A stretch of 61,358 bases of DNA, the filler included, from Sanchytrium tribonematis (taxonomy: Eukaryota), in assembly GCA_018985235.1 (NCBI GenBank). It is 13 parts of 13 records of this genome, joined end to end, with 100 filler letters (N's around TTAATTAATTAA, not from the genome) between each part and the next. Parts side by side here need not be neighbours in the genome. Positions count along the whole stretch, not along the records: positions 9,985 to 13,200 come from JADGIG010000895.1; 12 more parts are not named here. One strand, 5' to 3'. Position numbers and translations under genes: made by a program. This document shows positions 3,343 through 53,879 of the stretch, in pieces (position 1 is the first letter of the stretch; each line of letters opens with the position of its first letter). The notes under the pieces are model-generated. The model was given only the letters and a program-made list of their open reading frames with translations, did not search any database and was not told the origin of the DNA.

Positions 3343-6300
3343 AAGAGACTTAGTGATTAACGATAAACTAACAAAAGAGCAACAACAAGAACTTCAAAAC
3401 GTAGCAAACCAGTTTCTGCCATGTTTTGGTTCTGAGAATAAGACTCGAGTTAGAACAAGACATCACATAAGAACGGATTGCGAACCTGTCAGAGCAGGAA
3501 TCCCAAGATTAAGTCCAAGTGAGATTGAAATCATAAAAGAGGAATGCGAAAAGATGCTAAAGGAAGACAGGATTGAACATTCATGTTCTGACTGGCGCTC
3601 ATCTGTAGTCTTAATTCCGAAGCCAGACGGATCAGTTCGTTTTTGTGTAAACTATAAACTACTCAACAAACAAACAAAGTTCGACGCATATCCTCTACCA
3701 AACTTACAATCTCTATTATCAAAACTTCATGGAGCAAAATTTTTCATTTCACTGGATCTTAAATCCGGATACTGGCAAATTAATCTAGCCGAAAAAGATA
3801 AAGAAAAAACAGCATTTGTTACACCATTTGGACTATTTCAATTTAAAGTTATGCCATTTGGGTTGTCAACCGCTCCAGCCACTTTTCAAAGACTCATGAA
3901 TGAGATCTTTGACAAAATGATTGGCAAAGATCTATTAATTTATTTAGATGATCTATTAATTTATGCATCGACTTTCGAGGAATTAATTGAGAAATTTGTC
4001 AGAGTTCTACAAAAGTTGGAATTGCATGGTCTAACTCTCAGTGCCAAGAAATGCCACTTGGGAATGACAAAAATTAATTTTCTGGGTTTCCAAATTTCCG
4101 CAGAAGGCATTCAGGCTTGTGAGGAAAAGATTAAAGCCGTAAAAGAACTTCCTGCGCCCAGCACAGTCACACAAGTTCGACAATTTTTAGGACTGACTAG
4201 TTTTTATCGATGCTTTATACATCAATATGCCACAATAAGTCAACCACTTCAGAATCTAACCAAAAAGAATGCTATATTTCAATGGTCGACTGAATGTGAA
4301 TCCGCTTACCGTTCCTTACAAAGTGCAATCATCTCTGATAAGGTAACACTGGCACACCCACAATTTGATCAGCCCTTTTATGTGTATACTGATGCCAGCA
4401 AATATGGAGTTGGTGCAGTACTTGCTCAAGATAAAAAGCCAATATGGTTCATATCTCGAACACTTCAAGGTGCAGAGAAAAATTATGATGTTAGGGAAAA
4501 AGAATGCTTAGCAATCCTTTATGCATTAGATAAATTTAGACCATTTTTATATGGTACAAATGTAACAGTGTTTACGGATCATGGTAACTTGAGATGGCTT
4601 TTTGACTCCGAACAATCAGGACGATTAGCAAGATGGATATGTAAATTACAACAATACCACTTGACGATAGCTTACATTCCTGGTCCTCAAAATACGGTTG
4701 CTGATGCTTTAAGTCGATACGGCTACGAACCATCGAGCAATGTTACATTGAACAATATGAAACTAAGAGACAGGAAAACGATTGGCTACAATGAGACTGA
4801 ACCCTCAATGGTCAAAATCGATCCAACGATTAAGTCCACTCTTAAAAACTTCAATTGGCAACTTGAACAAAGTAAGGATCTTGTACTACAAGATCTACTC
4901 AAGAATAAAACAGCCAGTGTGAAAGTAATTAATGATATTATATTCAAGACAAGCAAATTGGGAAAAAAATTATACGTCCCCGAACACTTGGTGGATAGTA
5001 TTTTATCAATTGCACACAAAAGCGAGATATCTGCACACGCTGGTTCCGCTAAATTATCAATTTACTTAAGCGACTACTACTTTCCAAGTAAGCAAAATAG
5101 GATAAGGAAATATGTAAAAAGCTGTGAAACTTGCCTTTTATCTAAGGCACCAGTCATGGAACACCACCATACGACGAGAGTTCCAGCGATGCCTTTAGAA
5201 AGAATCTATATAGATTTCAAAGGTCCCTTGCCTATCAATCCCTTAAATTATCAGGAAGACAGCAAGTATTTACTTACAATACTAGATGATTCATCTAGAT
5301 TCTTAAATGCTGTACCAGTTTCGCATAATGGTGCCATTGACGCACTCAATGCACTTAAAAGACATTGGATACAAATATTTGGTCCACCATCTGAAATTAT
5401 AGCAGATACTATACCTTTCAATTCACAAGAATTTAAAAAGGTTACAGAAGACGAGGGCATAAAATTACAAAATATTGCACCCTACGCACATTTCAGCAAC
5501 GCGGTTGAAAGAAAACACCGTGAACTCGATGTCAAACTTCGAGCATTTAAACATTCTCGGAATTTATCCTGGACAGATTCACTTCATTTAGCATTAGTTT
5601 CAGTGAACAATGCGACAAATTCCGCCACAGGCGAAGCTCCATCCATGTTTTTATTTAAAAGTAAAATCGATCCTTTAAAAAGGATACGAATAACAAAATC
5701 TGACGATATCACAGAACTAAGGCGAAAAGCCAACCAAAAAGCCTATAATAAAAGGCAAAAGCGCTTAAAATCAATTAATTCTAGTAAGACTAGAACTAAA
5801 TATAAAAATGGAGATAAGGTTTATATGACCAATTCCTGGAAAGACGGGAAGCTGGATTACTATTATGTACCAGAACCAGTGTATTTTGTTAAGATGCTGT
5901 CGACAAACATCGCACAGCTTCGAGACAAGTACGATAACCTTTTAAAATGTCATATGGAGCAACTTAAGAAGTTATAAGTGAGCATTGACTGGCAAAAACC
6001 ACGTTCAATCCTGTTTAGGATAGGTATAGGTCTAAAGCAACATGGCAAACACCCTCTGTTCTTTAAATTTAGTTTACCATACCTCAAAATTCGGAATGTC
6101 TATTTAGTGATAGGTTTGATCCCAATCACCCATTAGTAGGCGTCGAATTAGACAAACTACTCAATTCTTAGCTCGAGAAAATTAAAACTCTTGCGAAGAA
6201 CTCATTTTATGGAATATCAATTCCAATCAAGCGCCATTAGGTGCAAATTTATTAAATATTCCCAAAAATGTTGTTAAATAAGCAACAATGTGAAATTTGA

Positions 6301-6565
6301 CCAAGTCATAAACTTTTTGGTCCCAATCAAGGAATTATATATCAACATCGGAATGAATATATATATATTTACCCCAATCAAGTAGAAAATTATAATATTC
6401 CGAACAAATTGACTAAATTATCCCAATCACACGTTTTTTTTGCCAAGTCAATGATGAATTAGACTCAAGGCGAACAATCTAGTGCTACAGCCCTTCAGCG
6501 AGCAATCGAGTGCTACAGCCGAATTTTTGTCGTTTCATGATAGAATGGGGGAAGTCGCTTTATAA
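3343..6565 (+). mobile_element. Ty3/gypsy LTR retrotransposon 1 (5'-truncated): pol, 3' UTR, polypurine tract
   Basis: RT-RNaseH-integrase order; purine-rich AGAATGGGGGAAG at 6542-6554 next to the contig end. Confidence 0.92.
3353..5977 (+). CDS. Gypsy pol polyprotein (RT, RNase H, integrase), uninterrupted, 5'-partial
   Basis: LDLKSGYWQI, MPFGL, YLDD; TDASKYG, EKECLA, TDH, ADALSR; HHCC zinc finger (AHKSEISAHAG...CETC); integrase IDF...D...ERKH. Confidence 0.95.
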   Translation: MINDKLTKEQQQELQNVANQFLPCFGSENKTRVRTRHHIRTDCEPVRAGIPRLSPSEIEIIKEECEKMLKEDRIEHSCSDWRSSVVLIPKPDGSVRFCVNYKLLNKQTKFDAYPLPNLQSLLSKLHGAKFFISLDLKSGYWQINLAEKDKEKTAFVTPFGLFQFKVMPFGLSTAPATFQRLMNEIFDKMIGKDLLIYLDDLLIYASTFEELIEKFVRVLQKLELHGLTLSAKKCHLGMTKINFLGFQISAEGIQACEEKIKAVKELPAPSTVTQVRQFLGLTSFYRCFIHQYATISQPLQNLTKKNAIFQWSTECESAYRSLQSAIISDKVTLAHPQFDQPFYVYTDASKYGVGAVLAQDKKPIWFISRTLQGAEKNYDVREKECLAILYALDKFRPFLYGTNVTVFTDHGNLRWLFDSEQSGRLARWICKLQQYHLTIAYIPGPQNTVADALSRYGYEPSSNVTLNNMKLRDRKTIGYNETEPSMVKIDPTIKSTLKNFNWQLEQSKDLVLQDLLKNKTASVKVINDIIFKTSKLGKKLYVPEHLVDSILSIAHKSEISAHAGSAKLSIYLSDYYFPSKQNRIRKYVKSCETCLLSKAPVMEHHHTTRVPAMPLERIYIDFKGPLPINPLNYQEDSKYLLTILDDSSRFLNAVPVSHNGAIDALNALKRHWIQIFGPPSEIIADTIPFNSQEFKKVTEDEGIKLQNIAPYAHFSNAVERKHRELDVKLRAFKHSRNLSWTDSLHLALVSVNNATNSATGEAPSMFLFKSKIDPLKRIRITKSDDITELRRKANQKAYNKRQKRLKSINSSKTRTKYKNGDKVYMTNSWKDGKLDYYYVPEPVYFVKMLSTNIAQLRDKYDNLLKCHMEQLKKL

Positions 6566-7838: not shown

Positions 7839-9884
7839 AACAAAACAATCAACCAACAAACCAGGAACAACAAATTGAATCTCCGATTCAACAAACACCT
7901 CACGGTACAACGGGAACATTGACATCCCAACCACCAACTCCAACTCCACAGCACCCCAATGAAGCAGCGATTTAACCAATCAATTCGAAAATATAATCAA
8001 GCATTGATTGAAAAGTACAAGAAATGTCACTTTGAAGAGGAGTACACGACCTCAAAGCTATTTTTGCGAAAATTTTGCTCTTCGTTAAATTCAACACAAG
8101 TACGACAACAATTGCAGACAGAATACGCTCGATGACGAATTCAAACTCACAGAGAAGCGTATGAGCTAGCAATTAATTTGGAAGCTGAATTAGAAAATCA
8201 AGACTTATTTGAGGGAGAAAAAGGAAGACGTAAATTTTCCAAGCCTAAGCCGAAATTCTCAAACTTCTCAAGCAGGTTTAAGAAATATGACCGATATAAG
8301 TCTGATCAACAGTTTCATGAGCAAGAAAAGAAGCCTTATTACAAAGGTAAATCTGCAAAAGGAAAACGACCTTTTAAAGGGAAATCTGGATTAAATCAAA
8401 TAAACCAGGATGAATCCTACTCAAACATTCCTTCTTGCAAAGTCTTAGTTCGCATTTTCAATGACCTACATGAAATTTTAATTGACACTGGAGCTACCCA
8501 TAGTTTTATTGATCAAAGTCTGGTGCATAACTTGGGACTAGCAATCAAACGATCTAGATTAAAGTCTGGTGCATAACTTGGGACTAGCAATCAAACGATC
8601 TAGATTATCTAGCACTATATTAGCTGATAGAAGCACGCTAGATATATTAGAATTAGTTAGCATTCCAGTACAGTTTAGCAGCACACCTCACATATTCTGC
8701 TTCAGGGTAGTGCCACAACTTGCTTGTGGAATTATCATTGGAAGAGATATGATGCAGGAACACAGTATCTCAGTGGACATGGCACGTGCGATGGTATGGA
8801 TAAAATCAACACCATTTAGGATGAAGAGATCCGCACAAGAAACTGCAATCCACACAAGCCTTCTGTTATATGCTACAGAGACAAACCATCGAAAACTTGG
8901 TTTTCGATATCAATGTATCAAGAAAAATGTTGCAAATGACTATGACAATCACTCAAATGATATTCCAGTACCAGATTTGAGTGACGAATCAAATAAAGTG
9001 GAAGACATTGTCATAAATGAAAACTTGTCGGTTCAGCAAAAACGGCAAATTCGGAACCTGGTACAGAAATTTCAAGATTTATTCGGGAAAGACACTCCTG
9101 GACGAATGAAAACCAGACATCACATCAGGACAACAACGTCTACACCAATAAGAGCAGGAATTCCTAGACTTAGTCAGGAAGAAATTAAAATAGTCAAAAA
9201 GGAGATTGATGAAATGTTGGCAAATAAGGTAATTGAAAAGTCAAAATCAGACTGGCGTTTTGCTGTAGTGCTAATGCTAAAACCTGATAAGACAGTCCGA
9301 TTTTGCATCAATTTCAAACCCTTGAATAAGGTCACAAAGTTTGATGGTTATCCCTTACCAAACTTGCAAGACTTACTACATAGCCTGGATGGTGCACTCT
9401 ACTTCATATCTTTGGATCTGAAATCAGGATATTGGCAGATCCTATTAGCTGAAGAGGATCGAGAGAAAACGGCCTTTGTCACATCATTCGGATTATTTCA
9501 ATTTTTATGTATGCCATTTGGATTATCCACCGCACCGGCAACATTCCAAAGACTAATGGATGAAATATTTCAAGGAATGATAGGAAAAGTCTTGTTAATT
9601 TACTTGGATGACCTATTGGTCTTCGCCTCAACTTTCCAGTCACTTCTTGAAAAATTAGAAAAAGTATTCGATAGACTTCGAGAATACAGCTTAACTTTAA
9701 AAGATAAAAAGTGCAAATTTGGCATGACTGAAACAACATTTCTAGGATTTAATGTCTGTTCAAATGGTATTAAACCAGAGAAAGCCAAAATCGAAGCCAT
9801 TACTATGCTAAGATCTCCAGAAACAGTCACAGAAATTAGACAGTTCTTAGGACTTACTAGCTTTTTTAGATGTTTTATTCATCA
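7839..9884 (+). mobile_element. Ty3/gypsy element 2: degenerate gag, protease, RT (3'-truncated)
   Basis: LIDTGATHSF protease motif; RT motifs LDLKSGYWQI, MPFGL, YLDD. A 46-nt tandem duplication (8515-8560 / 8561-8606) causes the frameshift between the two ORFs. Confidence 0.9.
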
Positions 9885-12572: not shown

Positions 12573-13200
12573 CTACTTTATTATTTTTGTATTCTTTGCC
12601 ATGGTTGCCAATGCGTATTTGCTAGTAATTGGTTGGTCCAATTCTTGTTTTATCCATTTTCCAACTTCATAAATCTTTTCTAAACTGATCCCTGTGCTTA
12701 ATCCCAATCCGTGTAGCATATAAAGCACATCTTCAGTGGCTACATTACCAGTAGCACCAGGTGCATACGGACATCCGCCTAGTCCTGCGATTGAAGAATC
12801 TACAGTTGTAATTCCCATCTAAATCAATAATAAATTACATTTAAACTGGCTAGTATATTCGCAAGTGCTTGTCCATATGTATCATGGCAATGAATAGCCA
12901 GTGCATCTGCGGATATCCCATTTTGTAAAACTGCTTTCAACATGGAATTAATGTCGCCTGGTGAAGCCACGCCGATGGTATCTCCCAAACTCACTTCATA
13001 GCATCCCAAATCAATTAATTGTCGAGTCACTTGTGCTACAGCTGACGGGAGGATCTTCCCTTCGTAGGGGCAAGCAACGACGCAACTCACATATCCACGT
13101 ACTTTAATATTATGCTGTTTAGCGAGTTCAATGACTGGTTTAAATCGATCTAAACTAGATGCAATAGTGCAATTAATATTTTTAAGCGTAAATGATTCAC
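12573..13200 (-). CDS. HMGCL: Hydroxymethylglutaryl-CoA lyase, 5'-partial; exons 13200-12839 and 12818-12573
   Basis: KNINCT, RGYVSC, SLGDTIG, HCHDTYGQALAN, DSSIAGLGGCPYAPGATGNVATED. Confidence 0.95.
12819..12838 (-). other. 20-nt spliceosomal intron GTAATTTATTATTGATTTAG (phase 0)
   Basis: Removal joins LASLN to MGITTVD, colinear with the conserved ALQMGVSVVD region of HMG-CoA lyases. Confidence 0.88.
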
Positions 13201-20978: not shown

Positions 20979-21219
20979 GAATTGAAATAAAGCCACTTAC
21001 GACGCTAGTTTTCAATTCAAGTTTAATTAGAAAGAAACATACGTTGGGGAACTGAATTGATACGAATTTGCAAGCCTTGCTTCTGCTAAATAAAAGTACT
21101 TAAATTAAAGATACGCGAATCCTTCAATTCTGGGTTAATTTACATAGGCTTGCCCACCAATCATTTTAATATCCCAAGTCATTTTAACTCTATAAAAGAG
21201 CCAACAAAATAATTTATTA

Positions 21220-21579
21220 ATGTTTTACTTGATTCTTTCAGCACATAAAATCTCTATAAATGGCAAATGCGGTCTCCGAAATGGACTCACGAAATGCCCT
21301 GGTGTTCAATATTGTAGTATAGTTGGATATTGTGGTACTGGTGTTGAATTTAAAAATGGATGTCAACCCCATTTTAGTGCTACTGGATTATGTAAAAATA
21401 TCCCCAAAACACCAGTTTGTGGATTAAATCACAATCGCAAAGTATGCGCGCGTGGTATGTGGTGTAGTTCAGATGGTTTTTGTGGGAATACAATGAAGTT
21501 CAGAAGAAATTGCCTATATGCATTCAGTTATCCTGGTATTTGTAAAGAGCCACAAGGCAGTGGAGGAATTGGTGAATAA
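21220..21579 (+). CDS. Secreted protein with two CBM18/hevein-like domains (6-Cys variant)
   Basis: GKCG...C...YCSIVGYCG...GCQPHFS and VCG...WCSSDGFCG. Confidence 0.85.
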   Translation: MFYLILSAHKISINGKCGLRNGLTKCPGVQYCSIVGYCGTGVEFKNGCQPHFSATGLCKNIPKTPVCGLNHNRKVCARGMWCSSDGFCGNTMKFRRNCLYAFSYPGICKEPQGSGGIGE

Positions 21580-21613
21580 ATTTTTAACAATTGACAAAAC
21601 AGAAATTTTATTA

Positions 21614-23216
21614 TTAGTAGTAAATGCTCTTCAATTGTTCCAATATCTCGTTGATGGTAATTCTGTCTTTAGGTTTCTGCTGCCACGCATTATTAATAAT
21701 AAAGTATAAATTGGGTTCGAATTGCTGTTGAGTAAATGGACGTTCTCCTTTCAATATTCGTTTTTCAATATCATTCTTCTCCAATTTCTCCCATGGTATT
21801 TTACCTGTCGCCATTTCCCCCAAAACAATTGCAAATGAAAAAATATCTGCAAATGGATACAAATTAAGGCGCCCAACCAAATTTTCATTAAATAACCAAT
21901 ATTCTGGTGATTTCCAATTGACAATACTCATTTGTTTACTTAATCTCGTTGTGGTGCTGATAATTTTAACCATTCTAAAGTTAATCAATTTGGGAGAAAA
22001 TTGAGAATCCAATATAATATTGGCTGATTTGACATCGTTGTGCGCAATCCCATTATTATGCATATATGCTAAACCATTAGCAACTCCAATTTGGATTTGT
22101 TGTTTTTGTTGTGAGTACTTTGGGATCATTTTCAAAATTGGGAAATGTGTGTAGCCAATCATACAATGAAAAGTTGTCAATATATTCCATGACAAGTGCC
22201 AAATCCCCAATGATTGAAGTAACTCCAAAATATTTGCAAATATAATCACATTTGCATAATAACTCCAATAATTTAATTTTTTTCTTATGATGACCTGTCA
22301 ATTTATCCGTGTGTGTCTTTAAATTCACAAATAACAGCAATTTTCTTTCCCTGCCATTCTCCTAAATAAACAAAACTATATGTGCCTTCACCCAGTTGTT
22401 TGTCTTTAAATACATCGACGTTGTTAATGTAGTCAAATTCCCTTACACCTACAGCTTTAAATTCATGATTCACATCTGCAAAAGTGTTTGAGATTTTGAT
22501 TGGACTGGGAATAATGTACCAATAATGTTTTAAATTGGTGTCTATTTCATTGACTTGTACTAATTTATCATTTTCTACTTTTAAATAGTATCCAATTGAG
22601 TTTGAAATGGAAAAATATCCATTATTTTCCACTTTGATGCACCATTCCTCATTTTTATCTACTTTTAAAAGATCACTTTCTTGGTAAAGTTTGTAAATAT
22701 CTGAACTATTATTCAGTCTACTAAAATGTATCATTGTGGCCTGATTCCCAATTGTCCAACCAGATGAAACGCAATTTCCAAATCCATTTGTTACAAAACA
22801 TAAACAACCTTGATTTGGGACACTGCTATGAGAGGCTAATTGAAAAATATTGGCCAAATTGTCAATCACTTCATTAGCTATGGGATCAGTGGCAGCAAGG
22901 TATTCATTATGACTTAATAATGAAAATGCGTATTTGACGTAATCCCTGGTTCTGGAAGTTTTGAATTGGTAAGTTTCCCTTTTATTGTTTCTGTATTCAA
23001 GACCTAAATTTGTTATACTAGGTACTCTGACTTGAAAATCAAATCTATGGGTGTATAGAGGTTTGGAAATCTATATTTCAACATTTCCTTTGATGTGGGA
23101 GATTCTTCAATGAAAATATGATATGATTGAAACAATGGATCCATCGGATCAGCAATACTGAGTAAGGCATGCTTTAGAAGACCATTTGTGATGGGACTTA
23201 TTGGTAATTGATCCAT
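21614..23216 (-). pseudogene. TKL-type protein kinase with N-terminal beta-trefoil-like region, disrupted
   Basis: LGEGTYSFVYLGEWQG, HNDVKSANII, WKSPE, DIFSFAIVLGE. Frameshifts include one at the VAxK lysine; DFG reads NFR; in-frame stops upstream. Confidence 0.8.
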
Positions 23217-23363
23217 TTCTAAAGAAAATAGTTTCAAGCGTCTCCGCGTCACCTTGGAGTGAGTGACTCTAACCTGACGTGTCAGGCTCTAAGGTGACGT
23301 GGATAGGCTTAGAGGTCTTAACGTTTACATGACGCTTACTTTAATTAATTCCAATTCATTTAT

Positions 23364-24359
23364 TTAATTATTTGGATCACAAAATCCATAATCTAATTGA
23401 CATCCTTTTGATTTTGCACAACTATCTGCCTTGTCTCCACAAATACTGTTCTTTCCACAACACAAATTTGTAGTATCATCTCCAACACACTCTTTTCTGA
23501 TTCCATTTCCATTATCTGTGGGCCCACAAGCTTCTCCTAATTTCACATATTGCGTTAATAAATTCAATCCACAAAGTCCGAAAGGCTTTTGACAACCAGT
23601 TCCACAATGCTGTGCATCAAATCCACAATAACCATCTGGTGAACAGCATTTCTCAGCGCGCATGACTATAGGGCATGATTTGTTGTTAAACGGAGTGCCA
23701 CATCTGCCATATAATTCACCTTTACACTCTCCAAATAGGGGATCGCATCCATTTGCATCTGTTCTGCAGATATCGAAAGAATCTCCGCACACCCCTAAAG
23801 ATTTAGAGCAGCACATACCTATTCGGCATTTTGCATTAAATCCATTTGGACCACATTTCTGGAAATATCCCACTCCAGCAACACATCCACTCTCAGACCA
23901 GGTTGGTTGACAACTATTTGCATTACAATGTGCATCCGTATCCCCACAATAGCCATATTTAGAACAGCATAATCCATTTGCACATTTATTGCCATTTAAT
24001 GGACCACATTTCTCACCATTCCCTACAATTTTAGCAACATTACATTGACCATATTGGGATTGACAATCTGATGCATTACAATGTGCATCTGTATTGCCAC
24101 AATAACCATATTTGGAACAACATAATCCGGGTTTGCATTTATTGTTTTTGGGATCTAATGCGGCTAATCCACATTTACCACCATTGTCAATACCAGTAGC
24201 ATTGGTGGCATCACATGGACCATATTGGGATTGACATCCAGTGCCACACCATTCTTTACCGATGCCACACCAATTAAATTGGGAACAGCAACCAATGGCA
24301 CATTTGGGTTTATTAGGACCACAATTTTGAGAGAATACGAGTAGGGATAAGTAGAACAT
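23364..24359 (-). CDS. Secreted lectin-like protein of six CBM18 (hevein) domains, no catalytic domain
   Basis: Six CG...C...CC[SG]...CG...C...C...C units after the MFYLSLLVFS leader. Confidence 0.93.
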   Translation of the reverse strand: MFYLSLLVFSQNCGPNKPKCAIGCCSQFNWCGIGKEWCGTGCQSQYGPCDATNATGIDNGGKCGLAALDPKNNKCKPGLCCSKYGYCGNTDAHCNASDCQSQYGQCNVAKIVGNGEKCGPLNGNKCANGLCCSKYGYCGDTDAHCNANSCQPTWSESGCVAGVGYFQKCGPNGFNAKCRIGMCCSKSLGVCGDSFDICRTDANGCDPLFGECKGELYGRCGTPFNNKSCPIVMRAEKCCSPDGYCGFDAQHCGTGCQKPFGLCGLNLLTQYVKLGEACGPTDNGNGIRKECVGDDTTNLCCGKNSICGDKADSCAKSKGCQLDYGFCDPNN

Positions 24360-24865
24360 GTGGAATGGGGCGTGTGCTGTTTAAAAAGAGTCAAAGGGGA
24401 TAAGTTGGTAAATGTTATTGGTGGGAAATGATGTGATTGGGAGGCGATTTGTTTGAAAAGATGCACAGATCATTTAGATGTTGACTATTTGTTACAACAA
24501 TTTATTGGAAATGACGGGGATATCATTGAATGACAACTTTGCAGAATATGAATAACACGTCGCAATTCGCAAACAGTGTCTTAAATTACCAAATGCTCTT
24601 TCAAATCATCCAAGCTGATTCAATAGATTGCCCTATCGTATTCCAATTAGCCAGAGATTTAAACATTCAATTTAATGATCCATCATGTAATACTGAATGA
24701 CAATCTAATTGCAGTAAATCACTTTCATTTCGATCCAATATCGTGAAAATTTAATTTTGAATTTATGAATTTAGATGAGACCATTCATAGAATAAATGGC
24801 CAATATTGATACAAGTACAAATAAATGATGACTGTAATGAGTTGCATTTGCAGTTCATAATATAT

Positions 24866-25480: not shown

Positions 25481-25799
25481 GACAAAAGAGAAGTCATGTC
25501 ATTTTATGGGCCCCTCTCAGATCACGAGTTGTTATTTTGTCCAATCATGTCCTTGAAATGACATTGGATGGTAGTACAACATTGAAATATCGCATGAGCT
25601 CACTGGTTTTGTGTGTATTTTGCAATGAAAGTAGAGGTGCGTGTACTCAGTTAATCTGTTTCACTCCTACTCTATTTGAGAAGTCTCAAAATGAGGCACG
25701 TGCAGATCACAGGATTGAATATTGCGCAATTAATGACGTCATTTGATACACGTGTTTCTTCATGTCCATTTCTATCAATTCTTTCCCCATTTGAATTTA

Positions 25800-26723
25800 A
25801 TGCTCATATTGTATTTATTAATTGCCATTTCTGTCAAATCACTTGCCATTGTGAGTAAATCCCTATTTATTGGTGCAAATGCATTACAATCTGGATCATT
25901 CTCATCTAGTCGTATATCCAGTGCATCTACCAGTATGAGAATAAGAGATACATCCCATGTAGACATACCACATTCTGATGCATTTATTTTACCAATTGAA
26001 GGTAGAAAATTATCATCCAGAAAAAGAAGGAAACTAGAGGCACAAGGGATTAATCCATTTGATGAATCTACATTTAATAATAGACTGAGTGATGCAGAGA
26101 TTGAATTGGCGCGTGATTTGGAATTAATCAAGGAAATTCAACAATATACACGAAATATTGTATTCAATAATTGGAATCGCGTAAGAAATCAAATTTTTAA
26201 TTTATATGCGAATTCAGATGGATATATTGAAGATGTATATACAGGTAAATTACATTTAATTACAAATTCATTGTCTATTGAGCATATCGTACCAAAAAGT
26301 GTTGTGATTAGAGATTCTGAAATAAGTAATGATTTGCATAATTTGATACCTGTGAATGCACATTTGAATGAGAGACGGAAGAACTGGCCATTCGCAGAAC
26401 CATCTAAAAGATTTAAATGGACTGGAAATCAAGAATCTTGTGTGGTTAATGAAGAAATGTATGTCAGAACTGAAATTAGAGGCATGATTTCCAGGGCTGT
26501 CATTTATGTATTAGTGGTATATGGGGATAGGTTATTGGCAAATAGAATCAAGGGAAATGAAGTAGGAGATTTAAATATGTTTGTGAGATGGTGTAAAGAC
26601 TATAAAGTGAGTGAATTAGAAAAATGGAGAAATGATGAAATTGAGAAAATACAGGGAAATAGAAATGTATTTGTGGATCATCCAGAGTTGTGTGATTTGG
26701 TATTGAGACTGTATAATGTGTAA
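25800..26723 (+). CDS. Secreted endonuclease I (EndA/NucM-like His-Me finger nuclease)
   Basis: SIEHIVPKS, NDLHNLIPV...NERRKNWPF, RGMISRAVIY, EKWRNDEIEKIQGNRNVFVDHPE; leader MLILYLLIAISVKS. Confidence 0.9.
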   Translation: MLILYLLIAISVKSLAIVSKSLFIGANALQSGSFSSSRISSASTSMRIRDTSHVDIPHSDAFILPIEGRKLSSRKRRKLEAQGINPFDESTFNNRLSDAEIELARDLELIKEIQQYTRNIVFNNWNRVRNQIFNLYANSDGYIEDVYTGKLHLITNSLSIEHIVPKSVVIRDSEISNDLHNLIPVNAHLNERRKNWPFAEPSKRFKWTGNQESCVVNEEMYVRTEIRGMISRAVIYVLVVYGDRLLANRIKGNEVGDLNMFVRWCKDYKVSELEKWRNDEIEKIQGNRNVFVDHPELCDLVLRLYNV

Positions 26724-33168: not shown

Positions 33169-33504
33169 TCATTTTATTATAACAGGTGCTTTTATAGCAG
33201 CAGATGGTTCATATTCATCACCAATGACAACACATTCATGTGCATCATTCTTGGATTTAACAGAATTCTCTTTTTTGGCACAAATGGCTTTAGCGTGTTC
33301 ATCAATGTAAATATATGATACAGATTCAAATGCTTCCATAGCTTCAAGATTACTATATTGTGATTTTAAATTACATCCCACATCGCCATCAAATAACGCA
33401 CAAATAAAATCATGATTTTTAGATTGTACGATTTGCATATTGGATGGTTTTAATGGGTATTCTGGTGGGATGGATAATGCTGAGACTATAATGTAGTTGA
33501 TCAT
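33169..33504 (-). CDS. Small secreted four-Cys protein, family A copy 1
   Basis: DFICAL...VGC...YIYIDE...AICA...CVVIG shared with four neighbours. Confidence 0.75.
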   Translation of the reverse strand: MINYIIVSALSIPPEYPLKPSNMQIVQSKNHDFICALFDGDVGCNLKSQYSNLEAMEAFESVSYIYIDEHAKAICAKKENSVKSKNDAHECVVIGDEYEPSAAIKAPVIIK

Positions 33505-33704
33505 GGCATTCAATGATCTGCTGGCACATATTTAAATGAATTTATGCCGAATTCATTTCATTAAGCCAATGAGTGAGCTCACAGAATCTTAGTCATTTAA
33601 GTCATTAAATTATATGATACATAGAATTAGTTTCCGTTTCATACGCAATTAGATGATAATCTACATCGTCGTCCACGTTTTCTCAAAAATATGCTACATG
33701 AAAC

Positions 33705-34578
33705 ATGAATGAATTCTTGGGAATGTTGAGTATCTTTACTTCTTCATTCTCAGCATCAACTGGTGCATTATTTAGTAAATTGGCATCTCAATATATCCAT
33801 CTATATGATCTACTCATTATTAGATTCACTGGTCAATTGTTTATCATTTCAATTATTTCAGTTGTTTTGGATATCAACGTATTTAAACAGCCATATATCA
33901 AGCAGCAAGTCAGTCGTGGATGTCTTGGCACCATCACATTTGCATCTACACTATATTCTAATGCAAATATGGAATTATCAAGTTCTGCCATGATTCGATA
34001 TTTAGGACCATTTATCACCATGATACTCGCTAAAACCTATTTAAAAGAAGAAATTAGTAAATTAAAATACATCGGAATGTGTATTGGCTTTATGGCCGTC
34101 TTGCTAATTGCAAAACCATTTCAAGAAACACATTCAAATTATCCAAATCGATCATTAGCTATTATAGCCAATTTTATAGCTGCAATATCAGCAGGCATCT
34201 CCACTATATTGACTAAAGAGATAGTCAAATACACCCATATTGCCAGTTTAATGTTTTATTTTGCATTTACCAGTTTAATCATCACATTTCCCCTTTTATT
34301 TCTCCCACATTCATCCGTATCCATGGATTCTAGTGGTATTTATGCCATTTTAATGATGATTTGCTATTTTCATGGCTCAATTATTTGGTAATACGGGTAT
34401 TAAACAAGTTCCTGCAAGTGTCAGCACATTAATTCAAAGATCTGATATGATATTTGGTGTATTTTATGGCGTAGTCATATTTAAAGAATCATTAGATATA
34501 TATTCTATTGTTGGATGTACTATGATATTAGTTGTGAATGGTTTATTGGCATTTGAACAATATAAATTGCAAAAATAA
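33705..34578 (+). CDS. EamA/DMT-family transporter with a 1-nt frameshift at ~34370
   Basis: About ten TM helices over two ORFs; YLGPFITMILAKTYLKE and YGVVIFKESLDIYSIVG. Confidence 0.85.
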
Positions 34579-34580
34579 AT

Positions 34581-34898
34581 TTATTGAAATATAATATTTG
34601 GTATTTCTTGCTTTGTAGTCCATATTTTTGGTGCTTTGTTTGTAACTGCATTTGTAAAATGATCACCAATTTCAACACATAATGTCGTATTGGAATAATT
34701 TCCATTATTTTTGATGCCACAAATGGATTTTGATGTTTCATCAATGAAAATATCATCTACTTTCCCCATTTTTGGTAATAGTCTTAAATATCTGCCAGAT
34801 AAGATCAAATTGCATCCAACATTTCCATTATTGTATAATCCGCATTTGAAATCACTCTTTTTTGATAAATATAATTTATAAAGTGGTGGAGAACTCAT
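34581..34898 (-). CDS. Family A copy 2 (no obvious leader)
   Basis: SDFKCGLYNNGNVGC, IFIDETSKSICG, CVEIG. Confidence 0.7.
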   Translation of the reverse strand: MSSPPLYKLYLSKKSDFKCGLYNNGNVGCNLILSGRYLRLLPKMGKVDDIFIDETSKSICGIKNNGNYSNTTLCVEIGDHFTNAVTNKAPKIWTTKQEIPNIIFQ

Positions 34899-35067
34899 TG
34901 ATAATGCGTATAACTTTAAATAGATGTATTTACGTCAATAAAATACCAGCCAATCACAGATCCTTCAGAAACTTGCATCCATACACAAATGCAAGCCAAT
35001 ACTTGCCAAATGATTCTGCACGGAGGATTACTTTTTTAGAAATGTAAACATCGCCATGAATTTGCAT

Positions 35068-35490
35068 TTATTGATTTGAAATCTTTTCTTTTTCAGAAGT
35101 CACTTCTAAAAATCCAGATGCCACAACAGTTGCTTCTTTATCAGTCACTTTCATCTCAAATATAGATCCGATCACAATACACTTTCGAGTGATATCCGAA
35201 TATAATTTTTTACCTGATTTATCTTTAATAGGTTTGTTCACCACAGTACAAACGGATTTCGTATCTTCTTCCACATAAATGGATTCTAAATGATCATCTG
35301 TCAATTTCATTTCATAATATTCCAAGTGCATTGTTGAAATCACTTTGCATTTCACTTTTGGTTTATGTAAAATACAAGTGAAATTACTTTGTTGCGATAC
35401 CACCAATTGTTGGAAATCCAATTCATTCAGATTTGTATCCATTGATTTTTGGTTCGTTGCAATGGCAGATAATGGAAGATGAAAGAACAT
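35068..35490 (-). CDS. Family A copy 3
   Basis: MFFHLPLSA leader; SNFTCIL, SIYVEEDTKSVC, CIVIGS. Confidence 0.75.
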   Translation of the reverse strand: MFFHLPLSAIATNQKSMDTNLNELDFQQLVVSQQSNFTCILHKPKVKCKVISTMHLEYYEMKLTDDHLESIYVEEDTKSVCTVVNKPIKDKSGKKLYSDITRKCIVIGSIFEMKVTDKEATVVASGFLEVTSEKEKISNQ

Positions 35491-35695
35491 GTTTAATCGA
35501 GAAACGTGGTTGATTTTTAAACAAGAAAGCAAGCAATTTTATTTAAAAGAGCCAATCAAAACATTTGGCAAACACTGATAATATGGGTAAATCCAATCAT
35601 GGTTTACACAGAATGGATTATCCAATAACCCAAATATTTGTTTGGTGTTGACCAAATGGAATAAAGAATTTAAAAATTTAAATGTTAAAATTGAT

Positions 35696-36061
35696 TTAAT
35701 GAGTATTTGTTTTAATAGCGTGCTTCGAAATCACAGTTGGAGTCTTTCTAGCATCTTTTGCTTCAAATTTGGATCCAATATTGACGCATTTCACTTCTTT
35801 CTCGAAATATTTGCCATTTAATACGGTTGCTTCTTCCAATGCACAAATAGATTGTTTGTCTTCATCAATATAAATAGATTTCACATATTGAAATCTCATT
35901 TCTGTCCAATTTGTGTCCTGATTTGAAGCACAAAATACTATTTCTGTTTTGTGTAAAAAGCATTTAAAATCACTCTTTGTAGAAGCAACTATTCCTTTTG
36001 AATCTTGGGCTACTAATGGTGATGCGAATAATATTGAGTGGTAGATCATGATGGATGACAT
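35696..36061 (-). CDS. Family A copy 4
   Basis: MIYHSILFASP; SDFKCFL, SIYIDEDKQSICA, CVNIGS. Confidence 0.75.
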   Translation of the reverse strand: MSSIMIYHSILFASPLVAQDSKGIVASTKSDFKCFLHKTEIVFCASNQDTNWTEMRFQYVKSIYIDEDKQSICALEEATVLNGKYFEKEVKCVNIGSKFEAKDARKTPTVISKHAIKTNTH

Positions 36062-36623
36062 GGCTTCCTTTTTAATTCAAAATCGTCATCATTGTAATCC
36101 AATGAAATCACTGCTAGGTTCTTTTAGCCAATCAAATAGACTGTAATATCTTTTTAATAAGTCTAATCCAATTAAGGATTATAAAATGTCTTGGCCACTC
36201 AGACTCAAATTCAGAAATTGCCCGTTAATCTCAATGAACCTGAGAAAACGAATTTGACTGCATACTTTTGCATATTTTGATGCGATCAGCACTATCAAAC
36301 CCACATTGAAATATCTATAATAAAATAATATCAATTCTTTATTTTACTCTTGCGTCTTAAATGAATTTCACCGTGTCTACGAGTATCGAGTAAATCAAAT
36401 TCATATCCAAGATAGACACATTTTTCGGCTGTTATATGGTATCTTACCTTGTTTTGAGTTTCATCGTAATTATAAAATGCGCAAATGGTTCGTTTATTTT
36501 CCCCTTTAAAGAATATTCTTTGGACACCTTGTCATTGTCCAATAAATGGATTGACTTGCTTGCTTGTTAATCGAGTTTACCACTAGTACGCAATGACAAA
36601 TTTCCATAAAATATTTATTCAAA

Positions 36624-36962
36624 TCAACTAATTGATTTCAAAATTGCTTTTGTTTTCGTATCACTTTGTTGAAAAGTAGATCCAATTGGAACACATTTCT
36701 CGTATGTAACTTGTTGTACATTCGGTTCAAATGTCTCAAATACACAAATAGATCGTGTAACTTCGTTGATATAAATAGAAGTCACATGTGAGAATTGAGT
36801 CATTTGATACAATTTTCCAGGATTAGTACTTGAACCACATTTTACAATTTGTTGTATTGGATACAATCCGCAAATAAATTCACTGTTTTTTGATGCTTTG
36901 ATAGTTCTTCCGTACTTTGTGACCCCTAATGGTGATGCGAATAATGACAAGTAGAAAATCAT
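36624..36962 (-). CDS. Family A copy 5
   Basis: MIFYLSLFASP; SEFICGL, SIYINEVTRSICV, CVPIGS. Confidence 0.75.
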   Translation of the reverse strand: MIFYLSLFASPLGVTKYGRTIKASKNSEFICGLYPIQQIVKCGSSTNPGKLYQMTQFSHVTSIYINEVTRSICVFETFEPNVQQVTYEKCVPIGSTFQQSDTKTKAILKSIS

Positions 36963-37287
36963 AATAATGAGAGTGAGATCCTCTTCTTTTATGGTAATTT
37001 ATAATTTGTTTGATTGGATCAAATTCAATGTATTGTGTTTGCAAATTATTGATTCCAATCGAGAGACTGGTAAATGGCTTGCATTCATTTGAAAATTATA
37101 TGATTTCATGATGGTTTGGATCGTATCCTGATGAAATATTTGAATAAAACATTAATAGAATATTGTCATTTCTCTATTTCCATAAATACAAACGTGATTC
37201 GCAATTCGTTTCAAAAAACAATTCAATTTACAAATCTATCTGATTGGCTACAAATCACTTTAAAACCAATTCCCCCATTGTTCGACA

Positions 37288-38231: not shown

Positions 38232-39233
38232 TTAATTCTCTTGGGCTAATTGTTCTAATAACATTTCTAGTTCCCTTAATAATAGTTGCTCGTCTTTTTC
38301 TGTTAATACGTCTACATGCTCAGTCAATTTCTGCATCCATTGATGATTTAATGCTTGACTTGCAGTTAATCTTTCATTTGGATTTGTTTTAGTCAATTGC
38401 CATACGAAATCAACCATATCATCTTGATTTAATTGAGCCAACTTTGATTTCCTATATTTTGGTGATTTTCGATTAAATAAATGCGATAAGCTGTAAAATC
38501 TATCGGTTTCTGAATGTGGGTCGAATTCAACTATTTTTGAAAGTTCTAGAATTAAAACACCCACCATAGCACCCAGTTGATACATATCTGCTTGAATTGG
38601 ATGGTATTGAGTGTAATCATTTTGCATTTCTGGTGACATGTACAAATATGTTCCAATAGATCCTCGTCTACTTTTACTTTTGATCATGTTTTCCAAATCA
38701 CCCAATACAGCATGCCATTCATCATTTACATTTTCCAAGAATATATTCTCTGGTTTAATATCCAAATGGGCAATTCCTCGTAAATGAATATGCTTTAATC
38801 CTCTTAATATTTGTTGAATCACAATTCCAATAAAATTGATTTTTACATGATTATCTGCTGATATTGTATGAATACGCGTATGTAGATCCATTGGATAATA
38901 ATTCATAATGATCTGATGACAATCCATCTCTTCAATGGCATCTGGTGGCGTCATCATCTCAAATCCACCATATTCACCAGAAATGATATTCGGATGTTTG
39001 TATTTCAATTTACCAAACATTTTCATCCAATTTACTTCTATTTTGACATGTTTTTGCAAATCTTTATCATTTTTAGTGATGCAAATCAGTTTAATTGCAT
39101 TTGAATCATGTTTATAAACAGTAGTGATTTTAACGCCAGTATCAGTCAATTTTATTTGATTGGTTCTTGGTATGAATGTCAATTGATTCATGGGAATTTT
39201 AAATTGTGAGAATACAAAGCATGTCAACAACAT
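38232..39233 (-). CDS. Atypical Ser/Thr kinase with signal-like leader, copy 1
   Basis: AIK, HLDIKPEN, DLE, GTYLYMSPE, DMYQLG; leader MLLTCFVFS. Confidence 0.88.
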   Translation of the reverse strand: MLLTCFVFSQFKIPMNQLTFIPRTNQIKLTDTGVKITTVYKHDSNAIKLICITKNDKDLQKHVKIEVNWMKMFGKLKYKHPNIISGEYGGFEMMTPPDAIEEMDCHQIIMNYYPMDLHTRIHTISADNHVKINFIGIVIQQILRGLKHIHLRGIAHLDIKPENIFLENVNDEWHAVLGDLENMIKSKSRRGSIGTYLYMSPEMQNDYTQYHPIQADMYQLGAMVGVLILELSKIVEFDPHSETDRFYSLSHLFNRKSPKYRKSKLAQLNQDDMVDFVWQLTKTNPNERLTASQALNHQWMQKLTEHVDVLTEKDEQLLLRELEMLLEQLAQEN

Positions 39234-39314
39234 TGGGGAAATTTGTAAATTTGAGGAGAAATGCGTGATTGGATCGTGATTGGATATCATTTATTTGTGA
39301 TTGAACAATAGAAA

Positions 39315-40364
39315 TCAGAGGGATTTACCACGTGGTATTTGTTTAGCAGATTTGTTGGGTATGTAATCCTGTAATTGGATATCTATATTTTCAACATCCT
39401 TTAACCATGGATCTTTTAATGCATCTGATGCAGAATAACCGATTAAACTGTTCCACTTACTCCTAGTCAATCGGCGTATTAGTCTTATCATCAAATGAAA
39501 TGATTTTGGTAATTGTCTAAATGCATCTTTCTTCAATTTGCTAAAAGACTCAATTTGATGCGCTTTTGATACAGTATCAGATTCAAATCTAGTTTTAGTA
39601 AATAATTCAAGAGTCAAAACACCCAAAGTGGCACCCAATTGATATAAATCAGCTCTTTTTGTGTTATAAGATTTATATTTGTATTTCATTTGCGGCGGAA
39701 TGTAAATTGATGTACCACGTGGTTCATTTAATCTTTTCTGATCCGTCATGGTTTCTAAATCACCCAGTACCACAACCATTTGATTCTCGATCAAGTGAAT
39801 GAATACATTCTCTGGTTTTACATCCAAATGTGCCTTGCCCTTTGAATGAAGATATTCCAATCCTTTTAATACCCGATAAGTGACTATTTTCATTATTTTC
39901 AAGTATTCCGCTTCATATAAGATATTCAACTCTGATTTTGCTTCAGTTGATTCTTGAATTTGGATCTTTAATTCAAAAACTCTATAAAATTCGTTTAAAA
40001 ATGAAGTTAAATCATACTCGTAATAGGGCATAATAATTTGATAACAATTTAATTTATACTCTATTTCGTCATGTATTCGAATGATGTTAGTCTCCATCCC
40101 TCCAAATTCACCCTTTATGATATGATCATGTTGGAAAGTTTTCATCATCTTAATTTCATGCTGCACTATAGGTACCAATATTTCATTGTTAATGCAAATG
40201 AGTTTGACTGCTTTGATGTCACTTAAATCACTTTTTGTTTTGTAAATAGTCGTAATATGTACTTCATCATTTCCAGTATCTCTTTTTTGTTCTGCTATTG
40301 GTTTGGGGTCTAATTTACTCAATGGAATGGTGAATTGGGCAAATATCAACCATGAAATCAACAT
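39315..40364 (-). CDS. Atypical Ser/Thr kinase with signal-like leader, copy 2
   Basis: AVK, HLDVKPEN, DLE, GTSIYIPPQ, DLYQLG; leader MLISWLIFA. Confidence 0.88.
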   Translation of the reverse strand: MLISWLIFAQFTIPLSKLDPKPIAEQKRDTGNDEVHITTIYKTKSDLSDIKAVKLICINNEILVPIVQHEIKMMKTFQHDHIIKGEFGGMETNIIRIHDEIEYKLNCYQIIMPYYEYDLTSFLNEFYRVFELKIQIQESTEAKSELNILYEAEYLKIMKIVTYRVLKGLEYLHSKGKAHLDVKPENVFIHLIENQMVVVLGDLETMTDQKRLNEPRGTSIYIPPQMKYKYKSYNTKRADLYQLGATLGVLTLELFTKTRFESDTVSKAHQIESFSKLKKDAFRQLPKSFHLMIRLIRRLTRSKWNSLIGYSASDALKDPWLKDVENIDIQLQDYIPNKSAKQIPRGKSL

Positions 40365-40468
40365 GACAATAGGGGATTCATTGTGATTTTGAGTGACATC
40401 ATTAGGGGAAAATGTGATCATCATGTGAATGGGAGTGAAACAGATTGAAAATAGTCAATTTTATTGAT

Positions 40469-41506
40469 TCAAGTAGTTCTTTGTGATTCAATCATGTTAA
40501 TTATATAATAAGCTAGTTCTGGTAATTTGACATTGGTGATCCATGGATGTTTTAATGCTTGTGCTGCTGTCCATCTATCAGATTCACTGGTTCTAGTGAG
40601 TCTATAAATAAAATCAATCATCAATGGGTCCATTTTTAAGAAATAATTTTTAAATGTAGACGGATTAAAATATTTTGAATCACCCGGTAAATGATTTAAT
40701 ATAAATGAACTAGTCCCATCTTTATTCACTACATACATATTATGACCAAATAATTGTAATACTGCCATTCCCAAAGCAGCACCCAATTGGAACATGTCCA
40801 ATTTCTGAGTATTATATACAGGGAATTGATCCTTTAAATTTCCATATGAATCAAACATTTGGGGTGGTAAATAGTCAGGAGTACCTACAATATCATCTGA
40901 ATATGATTTAAATGTCATGTGTTCATAATCAATTAATATAAAATGTAATTTATGATCTTTCTTTTTCACTAAAATATTATCAAATTTCACATCTCTATGG
41001 GCGATTTGATGTGCATGTAAATGATTTAATGCTCTTAATATTTGAGTCATTGCATCTTTCATATTCTGTATAAAAAGCAGTTTAAAATTTGATTCTCTTT
41101 GAATTGTTGTAATATAATCAATTAAATCAGATGGATAGAAATTCATTGATATTTCATAACAATCCACTAAATAAAAACGAGTAAACTTGAATTGAACTTG
41201 TTGTCTCTTTCCCTCAAATGTGCCATGAATTAAATTCACATGATGAAGTGGATAATGTCTAAAATGATTTATCCAAAATATCTCAGATGTGATCATTTTT
41301 TTGAATATATTATGATTCGGATCAATACAATTCAATTTATAGGCTTTAGAATAGTCTTTAGATCTGAAAATAGCTGTTATTTTAAAATCATCATGATGCT
41401 CAATAATTTGCTGATTTCTAAATACTAGATTCTCTAAGAAATAAGATGGTGTTGGTGCGTCATCTGTATTTAATATAGAATATACAAATAGAGTGATGAT
41501 GAACAT
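40469..41506 (-). CDS. Atypical Ser/Thr kinase with signal-like leader, copy 3
   Basis: AYK, HRDVKFDN, DYE, GTPDYLPPQ, DMFQLG; leader MFIITLFVYS. Confidence 0.88.
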   Translation of the reverse strand: MFIITLFVYSILNTDDAPTPSYFLENLVFRNQQIIEHHDDFKITAIFRSKDYSKAYKLNCIDPNHNIFKKMITSEIFWINHFRHYPLHHVNLIHGTFEGKRQQVQFKFTRFYLVDCYEISMNFYPSDLIDYITTIQRESNFKLLFIQNMKDAMTQILRALNHLHAHQIAHRDVKFDNILVKKKDHKLHFILIDYEHMTFKSYSDDIVGTPDYLPPQMFDSYGNLKDQFPVYNTQKLDMFQLGAALGMAVLQLFGHNMYVVNKDGTSSFILNHLPGDSKYFNPSTFKNYFLKMDPLMIDFIYRLTRTSESDRWTAAQALKHPWITNVKLPELAYYIINMIESQRTT

Positions 41507-42268
41507 GTTAGAAGGGATGACAATGATTTGATTTTGGGGATATTTGTGTGACCACATGGTTGCACGGAGATGTCCCTTTTACTTTAGAGCAACACAATCT
41601 ATTCCAATTTTATTTATTAATGTATTGCATAGTAGTTCCTGTAATCCACAAATGATTGATTTTATATGGAAATTAACTAGAAATAAACCTGAAGATCNNN
41701 NNNNNNNNNNNNNNNNNNNNNNNNNNNNNNNNNNNNNNNNNTTAATTAATTAANNNNNNNNNNNNNNNNNNNNNNNNNNNNNNNNNNNNNNNNNNNNGAT
41801 ATTTTTGGAGGGCGTTAAATGTTATATTGGATAAATTTTAAACAAATTACTATAATATTCGAATTGGCTTTTCAAAAAACTAATATAGCACGTGGCACCG
41901 ACGAACACCACGAATATGATCGTGTGGTATCAGCGTTTTGAGGAACTTATCGTGAGGCATTGGAAAAAGTTGATGTCCATGAATTGAAAAAAATTCGTAT
42001 TTTCAAGTCATTTGATGACTTCGGTAAGGTGACGTATCGCATGGTACAAGATACTCCGTTTTAAAGATGTGGCTGATTTCTAGCCGATCGAGAATAAAAT
42101 TGGCTCAGAGGCCTTTCAAAATTATTCGGTGCGAATGGAAAAAAATCGTAGCCATCCGCTTAACCGTTTGATTGCTAAACGAAAACAAATGATTTATTTA
42201 AATTGGTTTTAATGCAGCTTTCTAGTATGCTTTTCCCAAATAAAACAATTCGTCTTTTAACTTGAGAC

Positions 42269-45302: not shown

Positions 45303-45463
45303 ATCACCATATGAAAACTATGCTCAATTTCCTTTGTAAATCTTGAATTAATGATTGACCATTCAAATTATTGGCAAGCTTTAATTTAAAAAACTTGCAA
45401 AATAAACTGATTGGTGCAATTTTGAGAATCAACTCTATTTAAACTCAAGGACTCCAATGTATT

Positions 45464-45856: not shown

Positions 45857-46023
45857 ATATGAAATGAATTTTACCATTTAGCTCAAAAATCCTTGGGTCT
45901 CTTGTTGTACCAATCTGGTATAAGCAAGAATTAATTTGCAAACAGGAAAGCAAAACAATCCTTTATTTGATTGGTACCATTTCCAGTCACGAATCTACTT
46001 AAACCCCACCCACTTTTATTGAT

Positions 46024-46419: not shown

Positions 46420-46610
46420 ATAAAAATGTATGAATTGTGATCTTTGACTTGGGTTGCTTACTCTGCTTGCTAAATTGATTTTCAATACCACTCAAATTCA
46501 TTCAATTTAACAAAATGAAACTTGCACCAATTGATTCACTGCTAAATTTTACAAGCCATTTCGACAAGTATATTGAGATCTATTTAAGCGTGTCTGTCCC
46601 ATCCATTTAA

Positions 46611-48376: not shown

Positions 48377-49850
48377 ACCATTTCAGGAGTATTTTACAAC
48401 AAAATATCTATTTTATGCAGTGGTCCTGCAATTGATTCTATTCAACTCATCGGTTTGAATATTAATGGAACTATAATTAATGGTACTTTACCCTCAAAAG
48501 CTAGATCCCTTCAAATTTCATACAATTCAAAATTGGCATGTAATTTCCCAAGTGGAAATTTCCTGAATGTAGTGAATTTAGATTTGAGCCATAATGCGTT
48601 ATATGGTGATATTTTATCCATGTCTCCCAAGTTCACATCCGCCAATGTAGAATATAACCAATTAAGTGGCACATTACCCCAATTTTCTACAGCTCTACAA
48701 ACTTTGATTTTGAATAACAATCAATTTACCGGAGATTTTAAATTGTATAGTGCTACCCGGTTATCTGTGTTTGAAGCCAATAACAACCTTTTAAGTGGTT
48801 CTGTAAATAATATCACAGATTCATTAACTACTTTTTGTGTAGATGGTAATTTATTAACTGGCAATATTGACAATATCCCAAATCAAATCGTTTATTATTC
48901 AGCCAGTCATAATCAATTATCTGGTAAATTAACAGCCAATTGGCCATTCACATTAACCACTTTGAATTTAAATGGAAATCAATTTAATGGAACATTTCCA
49001 ATCAGTTTAATGCGACAAGTGCAATCATTAATGATTCAAAATAATCAATTTAGTGGGTGTTTGAATAATACATTTGCGTGTTTTAATTGTCAATTAAATG
49101 ATAATCAGTTTCAAGGGTCTGTTGTGTTTCAAAAACCAAGTAATTTGACATTACAGAATAATTTTATCACCAATGTAACAATTGTGGATAAATCTAGTTT
49201 ATTAAATTGTCAATTAGATAATAATCCAATGTTGGGTACCATTGGGGGTAAAACATTTGCAAATTCATGTTCTATTAATGGAATATTTATGGATACAGGA
49301 TATCATTGTGGGAAAGCATATACGCGATTGTATAATACAATAACAAGTGAGAGTACTTCTAGTACGACAACAGCGAAAAAGACTAGTTTAAGTGCAATAG
49401 AGACAACAATAAACACCAATCTACCAAGCAGATCATTGGATACAACAGAAAGTCGTCTAGAAACCTTGACAACTAGCAATTTAGAGTCACAAGAAATAAT
49501 TGCAGAGTCAATTACAGATGTATTTACAATTCAAACACGTTGTTCTTAATAATTTAGGACCCATTTTTGTTAGTAAATTGACTAAAACAGTCGATAATCA
49601 AGTATCACGTAGCACATTGTATCAAAAAGTAATTTCAAACACTGTTTCATTAAAATTGAAAACAGATTTTACATCTACAAGCAGTATTGAGAAATGGAAT
49701 GGTTCAATCAACGAGTTCAAATTGAAATATGAGACCAGTCAAGTTGCTAGATTGGGATTCAGCTTAATATTTATTGGGTTTATACTGGCGAAAATGCCAT
49801 TGAAAAAGACATTGAAGAAGAATCATAGAAGTGAAAGTATGGAACAATAA
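48377..49850 (+). CDS. Extracellular LRR protein with S/T-rich stalk and C-terminal TM; 5'-partial, frameshift near 49535
   Basis: LxxNxLSGxLP repeats; Thr/Ser stalk; RLGFSLIFIGFILAKMP anchor. Confidence 0.8.
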
Positions 49851-49935
49851 ATAGATGGATGTGATCAATTGGACAATGAGTATGTCTCTCGATTCAATTC
49901 AACTGCTTAAATTACCCACTTTACCCATCTTCTTG

Positions 49936-53001: not shown

Positions 53002-53879
53002 TTATTCCATATTTTCCAATAAATAATTGGCAGCTAATTCCTCATTTCGATCACAAGCTAAATACGCCTCAATACAGGCTTCTCTACTGAATCCTAAATT
53101 CATTAATGACTGTATTTTTTGACCATCCTCTTGACTTAATTCAATTTGCACTTCTAAATGAAATAAAAAGGACCTCGAGGTTCTCCCTGATTTTGCATTT
53201 GTTGCAAATATTGCATGATTTGTTGACCCATTTGAGGATTAGCAGCCATTAATTGCTGTAATACTTCTGGATTTGACTGAATTAATCCTAATAATTGCTC
53301 CATTTGAGTTTGTTCATTGGCATCCAAACTGATTTCATTCATTTCTGGTTGTTCTTGCACTTCTTGTGGAGGTGGCAATGGGTTCAATTGTTCTACTTCA
53401 CCTTGTGACTCTAATTGACCACTTAATAAATACTCAATGGCTCTATCTGGATGATTAAATGCTTTTCGCATGGCTTTTTGAATATCTTGCTCATTAAATC
53501 CCATTTCTTTCATTTCTTTGGTGGCTTTCTGCAATGCATCACCAGATAATACATTCGTATTTGTAGTTGGTGTATCTGGGTGTTTTTTGGTTGGAGAATT
53601 GGGTTCTGAATTAATTGGGGATTTTGGTGTTTTTGAGACTGGTTTTGGCTGTGCTTGTGGGGCAGATTTAGATTGGCTGATCATATAGACAATATGATGC
53701 TCTGGTTGATATAAATCACTCATTAATTGAGAATCCTCTAAAATTTTACCTTGATAAATACATTTGATTTGTTCTGGAGCACATTTCTCGTGTTCACTTA
53801 AATAAGTTTTGATCTCGCTAACAGATTTCGCAGTGCATTTGGTTGTTACGTTTTTCAGATTTTTGAGCGTGACCTCCAT
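53002..53879 (-). CDS. RAD23: UV excision repair protein Rad23 (UBL-UBA-STI1-UBA); exons 53879-53174 and 53153-53002
   Basis: [12 protein letters not shown]...[12 protein letters not shown]1 EMGF...[12 protein letters not shown]; spliced UBA2 [30 protein letters not shown]. Confidence 0.95.
53154..53173 (-). other. 20-nt spliceosomal intron GTCCTTTTTATTTCATTTAG (phase 1)
   Basis: Removal restores the frame into UBA2 (CGA G|AA GTG); spliced CDS is 858 nt. Confidence 0.85.

Follow-up and report, generated by a model that had tools for sequence, protein, structure and literature searches.

A putative 20-nucleotide spliceosomal intron in the HMG-CoA lyase gene of a sanchytrid-clade fungus

The window analysed here is a stretch of 61,358 nucleotides of DNA with a GC content of ~33%, composed of a string of parts (mostly 3.2 kb, one of 21.8 kb) with N spacers between them, and it carries eukaryotic genes, secreted families and retrotransposon pieces. 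One of its genes, on the minus strand, encodes HMG-CoA lyase (HMGCL) and is divided into two exons. The upstream exon (12839..13200), which has lost its 5' part at the contig end, matches positions 105-222 of the human chain (E 5e-43) and positions 99-209 of Pfam PF00682; a contig of run X1 extends past 13200, where this exon stops. The last exon (12573..12818) matches positions 224-296 of the human chain (E 3e-24) and positions 211-259 of the Pfam family, and contains the GLGGCPY motif and the stop codon. Between the two lies a GT-AG insert of 20 nt (12819..12838), phase 0 and ending in ATTTAG, which shifts the reading frame and carries an in-frame stop. Its 15th base, an A at 12824 in the context TTGAT and sixth from the 3' end (position -6), is a putative branch point.

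This insert had been described in an earlier note as an intron whose exact removal leaves no gap against homologues, and its coordinates, length and sequence are as claimed there, the strand being minus. As in a spliceosomal intron, the ends are GT...AG and removal restores the conserved frame. Residues 1-119 of the upstream exon correspond to positions 105-222 of the human HMGCL chain, the next exon starts from 224, and Asn120 fills position 223, so that the join is in phase 0 and gapless; the HMGL-like positions of Pfam, 99-209 and 211-259, are also contiguous across it. When the 43 nearby GT/GC-AG pairs were scored with a profile built from 64 full-length homologues, the pair given in the earlier note was the best with 331 bits, the next one reaching 317 and the unspliced sequence 212. 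Homology sets the length of the intron at 20 nt but leaves a range of about six positions for its place (scores from d-2 to d+3 lie within 1.3 bits); with a probability of GT..AG of 0.003 per placement, the chance of finding such ends is ~0.02 for the window alone, relatives not yet counted.

The relatives of this gene also place the host. The top of the HMG-CoA lyase search is common to the window exon, five ORFs and the sanchytrid Amoeboradix gromovi, and in a tree of 30 sequences (29 of them fetched homologues, with P0121 and P0241 left out as near-copies) the window exon groups with four ORFs and A. gromovi in a single clade (support 100/98). The HMG-CoA lyase exon is 77% identical to that of A. 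gromovi, and the EF1-beta of the window 79%, while EF1-beta has at most 58% full-length identity to other named fungi among the matches listed. Judging by these sequences, the host is a sanchytrid-clade fungus distinct from A. gromovi, from a group of the alga-parasitising type, and the placement among fungi in the earlier note is upheld. The HMG-CoA lyases of the clade (P0121-P0125, P0130) all lack three residues near the N-terminus that the other aligned homologues have, and this deletion would be a convenient means of recognizing further sanchytrid-like contigs.

Five of the six clade proteins listed in the search, representing four lineages (P0121 is a shorter P0122), end or leave homology exactly at the intron codon, and the next residue is Val, which forces GT at that place. 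The sixth, from A. gromovi, reads through without insert. Two tails behind the break were decoded by trying all possible intron lengths and keeping those that end in AG and lead into an open frame matching the family profile: P0123 gave 22 nt (16.8 bits) and P0130 gave 19 nt (18.4 bits), and none of 300 shuffled tails equalled the score in either case. Both lengths are back-translated from protein and not read from DNA; the protein letters force a GT start, a T-N-G end and an A at -6. The tails of P0121/2, P0125 and P0244-6 do not extend far enough to be decoded.

These breaks bear on one alternative, namely that the 20 bases are an artefact of assembly or sequencing. The window is indeed built of short contigs and differs from X1 by at least one single-base indel; the X1 contig, with a depth of 111, has 0 differences over the insert, but X1 is DNA and may be the window's own source, so that it is not independent support. 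Four other lineages, however, break at the same HMGCL codon with GT, as do two more distant eukaryotic contigs that have a donor there, and we consider an artefact barely conceivable.

Outside the clade, 2 of 80 metagenome loci break at the HMGCL intron codon with AG|GT: one of them, L074, yields a 44-nt intron at that codon, and the other, L075, stops before any acceptor. The remaining 78 loci continue across the site without break. Among these 80 loci no clade member could be placed, and none exceeded 68% identity. In the hemichordate Ptychodera, the isoform P0228 skips 42 residues starting at the intron codon, as an exon boundary would allow, and the human HMGCL gene presumably has an exon boundary at the same codon, after c.750. 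The insert thus occupies a position common to introns of homologous genes, which from these comparisons looks ancient, and the simplest history would be that of an old HMGCL intron that became shorter within the clade and disappeared from A. gromovi.

Removal by means other than the spliceosome has to be weighed against this history, either by a cut of the Ire1/HAC1 type or by ribosomal frameshifting or bypass. The HAC1 introns of filamentous fungi are 20 nt long, a length with which the insert coincides, and Ire1-type introns have CNG-CNG hairpin loops at both cuts. At HMGCL such hairpin loops were not found and the CNG-CNG motif is present at neither junction; the 60-nt region folds no better than its shuffles (z -0.85), the ends are GT-AG, and the length and sequence differ among relatives, yet the position matches that of the 44-nt intron of L074. 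We regard this alternative as highly improbable.

Very probably, as far as sequence comparison can tell, the 20 bases are instead an ancestral U2-type intron of the HMG-CoA lyase gene, reduced to 19-22 bases in the sanchytrid clade, and their removal by a normal spliceosome is predicted. The spliceosomal part of the earlier reading is very likely right, given the exact phase-0 join and the same break in four lineages; the distinct micro-intron splicing system that it proposed is not borne out, normal U2-type splicing being the most likely reading.

A second gene of the window points in the same direction. RAD23, on the minus strand, has a first exon (53174..53879) with domain matches to the ubiquitin-like and the first UBA domain, and a second exon (53002..53153) with the second UBA domain (Pfam UBA, E 5.7e-14). 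Between them we place, from profile scores and relatives, a candidate 20-nt GT-AG intron (53154..53173), phase 1, which also ends in ATTTAG and has an A at -6 (53159). In a codon-model scan this site and that of HMGCL were among the strongest two-sided joins. The 20-nt option scores 41.8 bits, a tandem acceptor giving 23 nt 39.2, and a 44-nt option 8.9. In all four RAD23 relatives found, A. gromovi included, a stop comes 2-16 residues after the Gly near the intron place, and each of these has one UBA match only; a C-terminal UBA-type motif is present in 78 of the 104 mid-length matches of a representative search, which contained no further clade member above E 1e-30 except two multi-repeat proteins. 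The tail of the RAD23 relative P0243 fits 13, 19 or 22 nt about equally and does not fix the length. The donor, GTCCTT, is a poor fit to U1. The case for RAD23 appears weaker than that for HMGCL, as Gly permits a GT donor but does not force it.

A further possibility is that the HMGCL insert is a relic, rarely or no longer spliced, with the enzyme truncated or dead. Short introns of microsporidia, as described in excerpts of the respective papers, are poorly spliced (median 25% in Vavraia, PMC4435813; <20% in Encephalitozoon cuniculi, PMC6349667), and apparent pseudogenes are present in the window. Against this, the HMGCL exon that follows the stop has an open frame and is well conserved (E 3e-24), the decoded exon starts of P0123 and P0130 still match the family profile, and in RAD23 the second UBA domain is intact behind its intron. 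Moreover the GLGGCPY exon sits behind the stop, so that an intact enzyme needs splicing. A relic of this kind is therefore quite improbable, and total loss of HMGCL splicing seems unlikely from sequence conservation; a low splicing efficiency, by analogy with microsporidia, is possible.

With a spliced ancestral intron as the preferred reading, its dimensions can be compared across relatives. The earlier note had proposed a fixed length, and in this genome both delimited introns have 20 nt, a number too small to judge it. Across the relatives this does not hold: one and the same HMGCL intron has 19, 20 or 22 nt, which is not a population where nearly all introns have one or two lengths. As these sequences indicate, the intron class is narrow (19-22 nt), sparse and not of fixed length across species. 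The A is at base 15 of 20 in both window introns, HMGCL and RAD23, and at -6 in 4/4 delimited introns, which represent two independent loci only (three are homologous) in A/T-rich sequence; the 22-nt intron of P0123 has a second candidate A at -10. The distance from donor to A varies, being 14, 15 and 17 bases in the 19-, 20- and 22-nt introns. The A six bases from the 3' end, which was also part of the earlier description, thus recurs in a small and non-independent sample; as a branch point it is a lead and not a result.

A mechanism compatible with these features can be proposed. The donor GT would be read by U1/U6; U2 would pair with the U-rich stretch, bulging the A at -6; the 3' site would be the YAG five bases past this A, with no room for a pyrimidine tract, and the lariat loop would measure ~15 bases. 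Length changes would be confined to the spacer between donor and branch A. In a reduced parasite genome, a bias towards deletions probably wore down the few introns that survived until they approached a functional floor, while others, such as the HMGCL intron in A. gromovi, would have disappeared altogether. An Rfam search of the 61-kb window gave no match, a result that concerns the window and says nothing about the genome.

Several systems of tiny introns, as described in parts of the papers cited here, offer terms of comparison. Stentor coeruleus has ~8,800 introns of 15-16 nt, near-fixed in length and with a stringent GUA start (PMC9505925), in which the A at position 10 of 15 is the sixth base from the 3' end (PMC9505925). 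The introns considered here are like them in being GT-AG and U-rich, without pyrimidine tract and with an A sixth from the 3' end; unlike those of this free-living ciliate, they are few, of 19-22 nt and with variable donor. The introns of the Bigelowiella nucleomorph (18-21 nt) and of Mikrocytos (16-17 nt; PMC10245619) also belong to reduced genomes and fall in a narrow size band, which in the nucleomorph overlaps 19-22 nt; however, introns are numerous in the nucleomorph and have a conserved sequence in Mikrocytos, whereas here they are few and weak in motifs, and the lineages are unrelated. Myxobolids and dicyemids (Dicyema), with median lengths of 22-27 nt (PMC13644364), are likewise parasites with ancestral positions kept, shrunken introns and reduced signals; they are animals, and their conserved A lies farther from the AG in longer introns, while here it stays at -6 in introns of 19, 20 and 22 nt (n=4). 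Introns of E. cuniculi and other microsporidia measure ~25 nt and those of Rozella ~30 nt (PMC6349667), and those of Trichomonas 23-25 nt (PMC12316389). These are also intron-poor or reduced parasites, microsporidia and Rozella being Holomycota, but their introns are longer than 19-22 nt, and the motifs of E. cuniculi and Trichomonas are stronger. As sanchytrids form a fungal branch of their own, their introns probably became short independently of those of microsporidia and Rozella.

Tiny introns are therefore already known as a kind, and it is for the sanchytrids that we found no report. In the excerpted text of the sanchytrid genome paper (PMC8371127) the word 'intron' is found in a reference title only, and nine of its supplements yielded annotation text alone; PMC10459994 mentions introns in a reference only. 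A literature search, with subscription journals mostly outside its coverage and some sources available in part, found no description of sanchytrid introns or spliceosome. The chances seem evenly balanced that sanchytrids have, clade-wide, the shortest spliceosomal introns of fungi (~19-22 nt), reached independently of microsporidia and with the A in the Stentor position, sixth from the 3' end; 'shortest in fungi' is put forward as a hypothesis.

If true, this would point to a minimal geometry reached by convergence, with a spliceosome that is still largely normal, and would give a further, independent example of introns shortened to the extreme, from a part of the fungal tree close to Blastocladiomycota, for comparison with ciliates, nucleomorphs, mikrocytids and myxozoans. 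The HMGCL insert is close to the smallest size known and bears on the limit of the smallest spliceable intron; one intron would provide a natural series of 19, 20, 22 and 44 nt, plus a loss. The public sanchytrid proteomes would moreover be truncated at every intron. The earlier note had called such introns invisible to default gene finders, which is half right: as stated in part of PMC8371127, the public proteins were called by TransDecoder on genomic contigs, which models no intron of any size. The RAD23 protein of A. gromovi is labelled complete, yet it is without the last domain, and gene-content comparisons built on sanchytrid proteomes may need to be re-checked.

Introns are sparse in this genome's window. 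The yield is of 2-3 in ~34 kb of ORF cover, that is <0.1 per kb, by scans that are blind to in-frame, UTR and first-codon introns; a density of 1.3 per kb is given for Allomyces in part of PMC8476143. The third candidate, a 19-nt GT-AG stretch with an ATTTAG end (49539..49557, plus strand), lies in a lineage-specific LRR-like gene and could be a plain frameshift. A plain ORF-joining scan returned hundreds of GT-AG pairs attributable to chance, whose lengths showed no peak among the matches listed, and a loose motif scan of the window found 134 look-alike stretches, 13 of them joining long frames, so that the micro-intron motif alone is not diagnostic.

Other frame breaks were considered as introns and rejected. 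In the EamA gene (33705-34578, plus strand) the break at 34367 is one extra base in a T run, absent from X1; either an assembly error or an allelic difference accounts for it, and hence not every frame break in the window is an intron. For the break at ~58645 in a dihydrouridine synthase gene (58205-58690, plus strand), no GT-AG explanation was found; the encoded protein presumably lacks about a dozen residues. The breaks at 50460, 51250 and 60165 in LRR-like genes were examined and not accepted. A degenerate kinase gene (21614-23070, minus strand) has two frameshifts (~22335 and 22110), also present in the X1 contig; neither was retained as an intron, and excision of a 19-nt GT-AG stretch at 22317-22335 would take out the position of the kinase Lys. 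The X1 contig skips 21934-22055 in this gene, which is likely a pseudogene with two forms.

More generally, between 19917 and 39900 about 190 substitutions, together with several indels, separate the X1 contigs from the window, which suggests that the run contains alleles, strains or paralogues. Hevein-type chitin-binding repeat proteins and a secreted protein of the Endonuclease I family are encoded at 21196-24380 and 25737-26723. Tandem lineage-specific families occupy 33169-37000, 45443-47797, 38232-41578, 48377-51559 and 59358-60499, and comprise small secreted proteins without Pfam match, three divergent kinases and LRR-like proteins with frame breaks. Pieces of Ty3/gypsy-like retrotransposon pol, recognized by eye from translations, are found at 3343-6565, 8136-9884 and 54936-58104.
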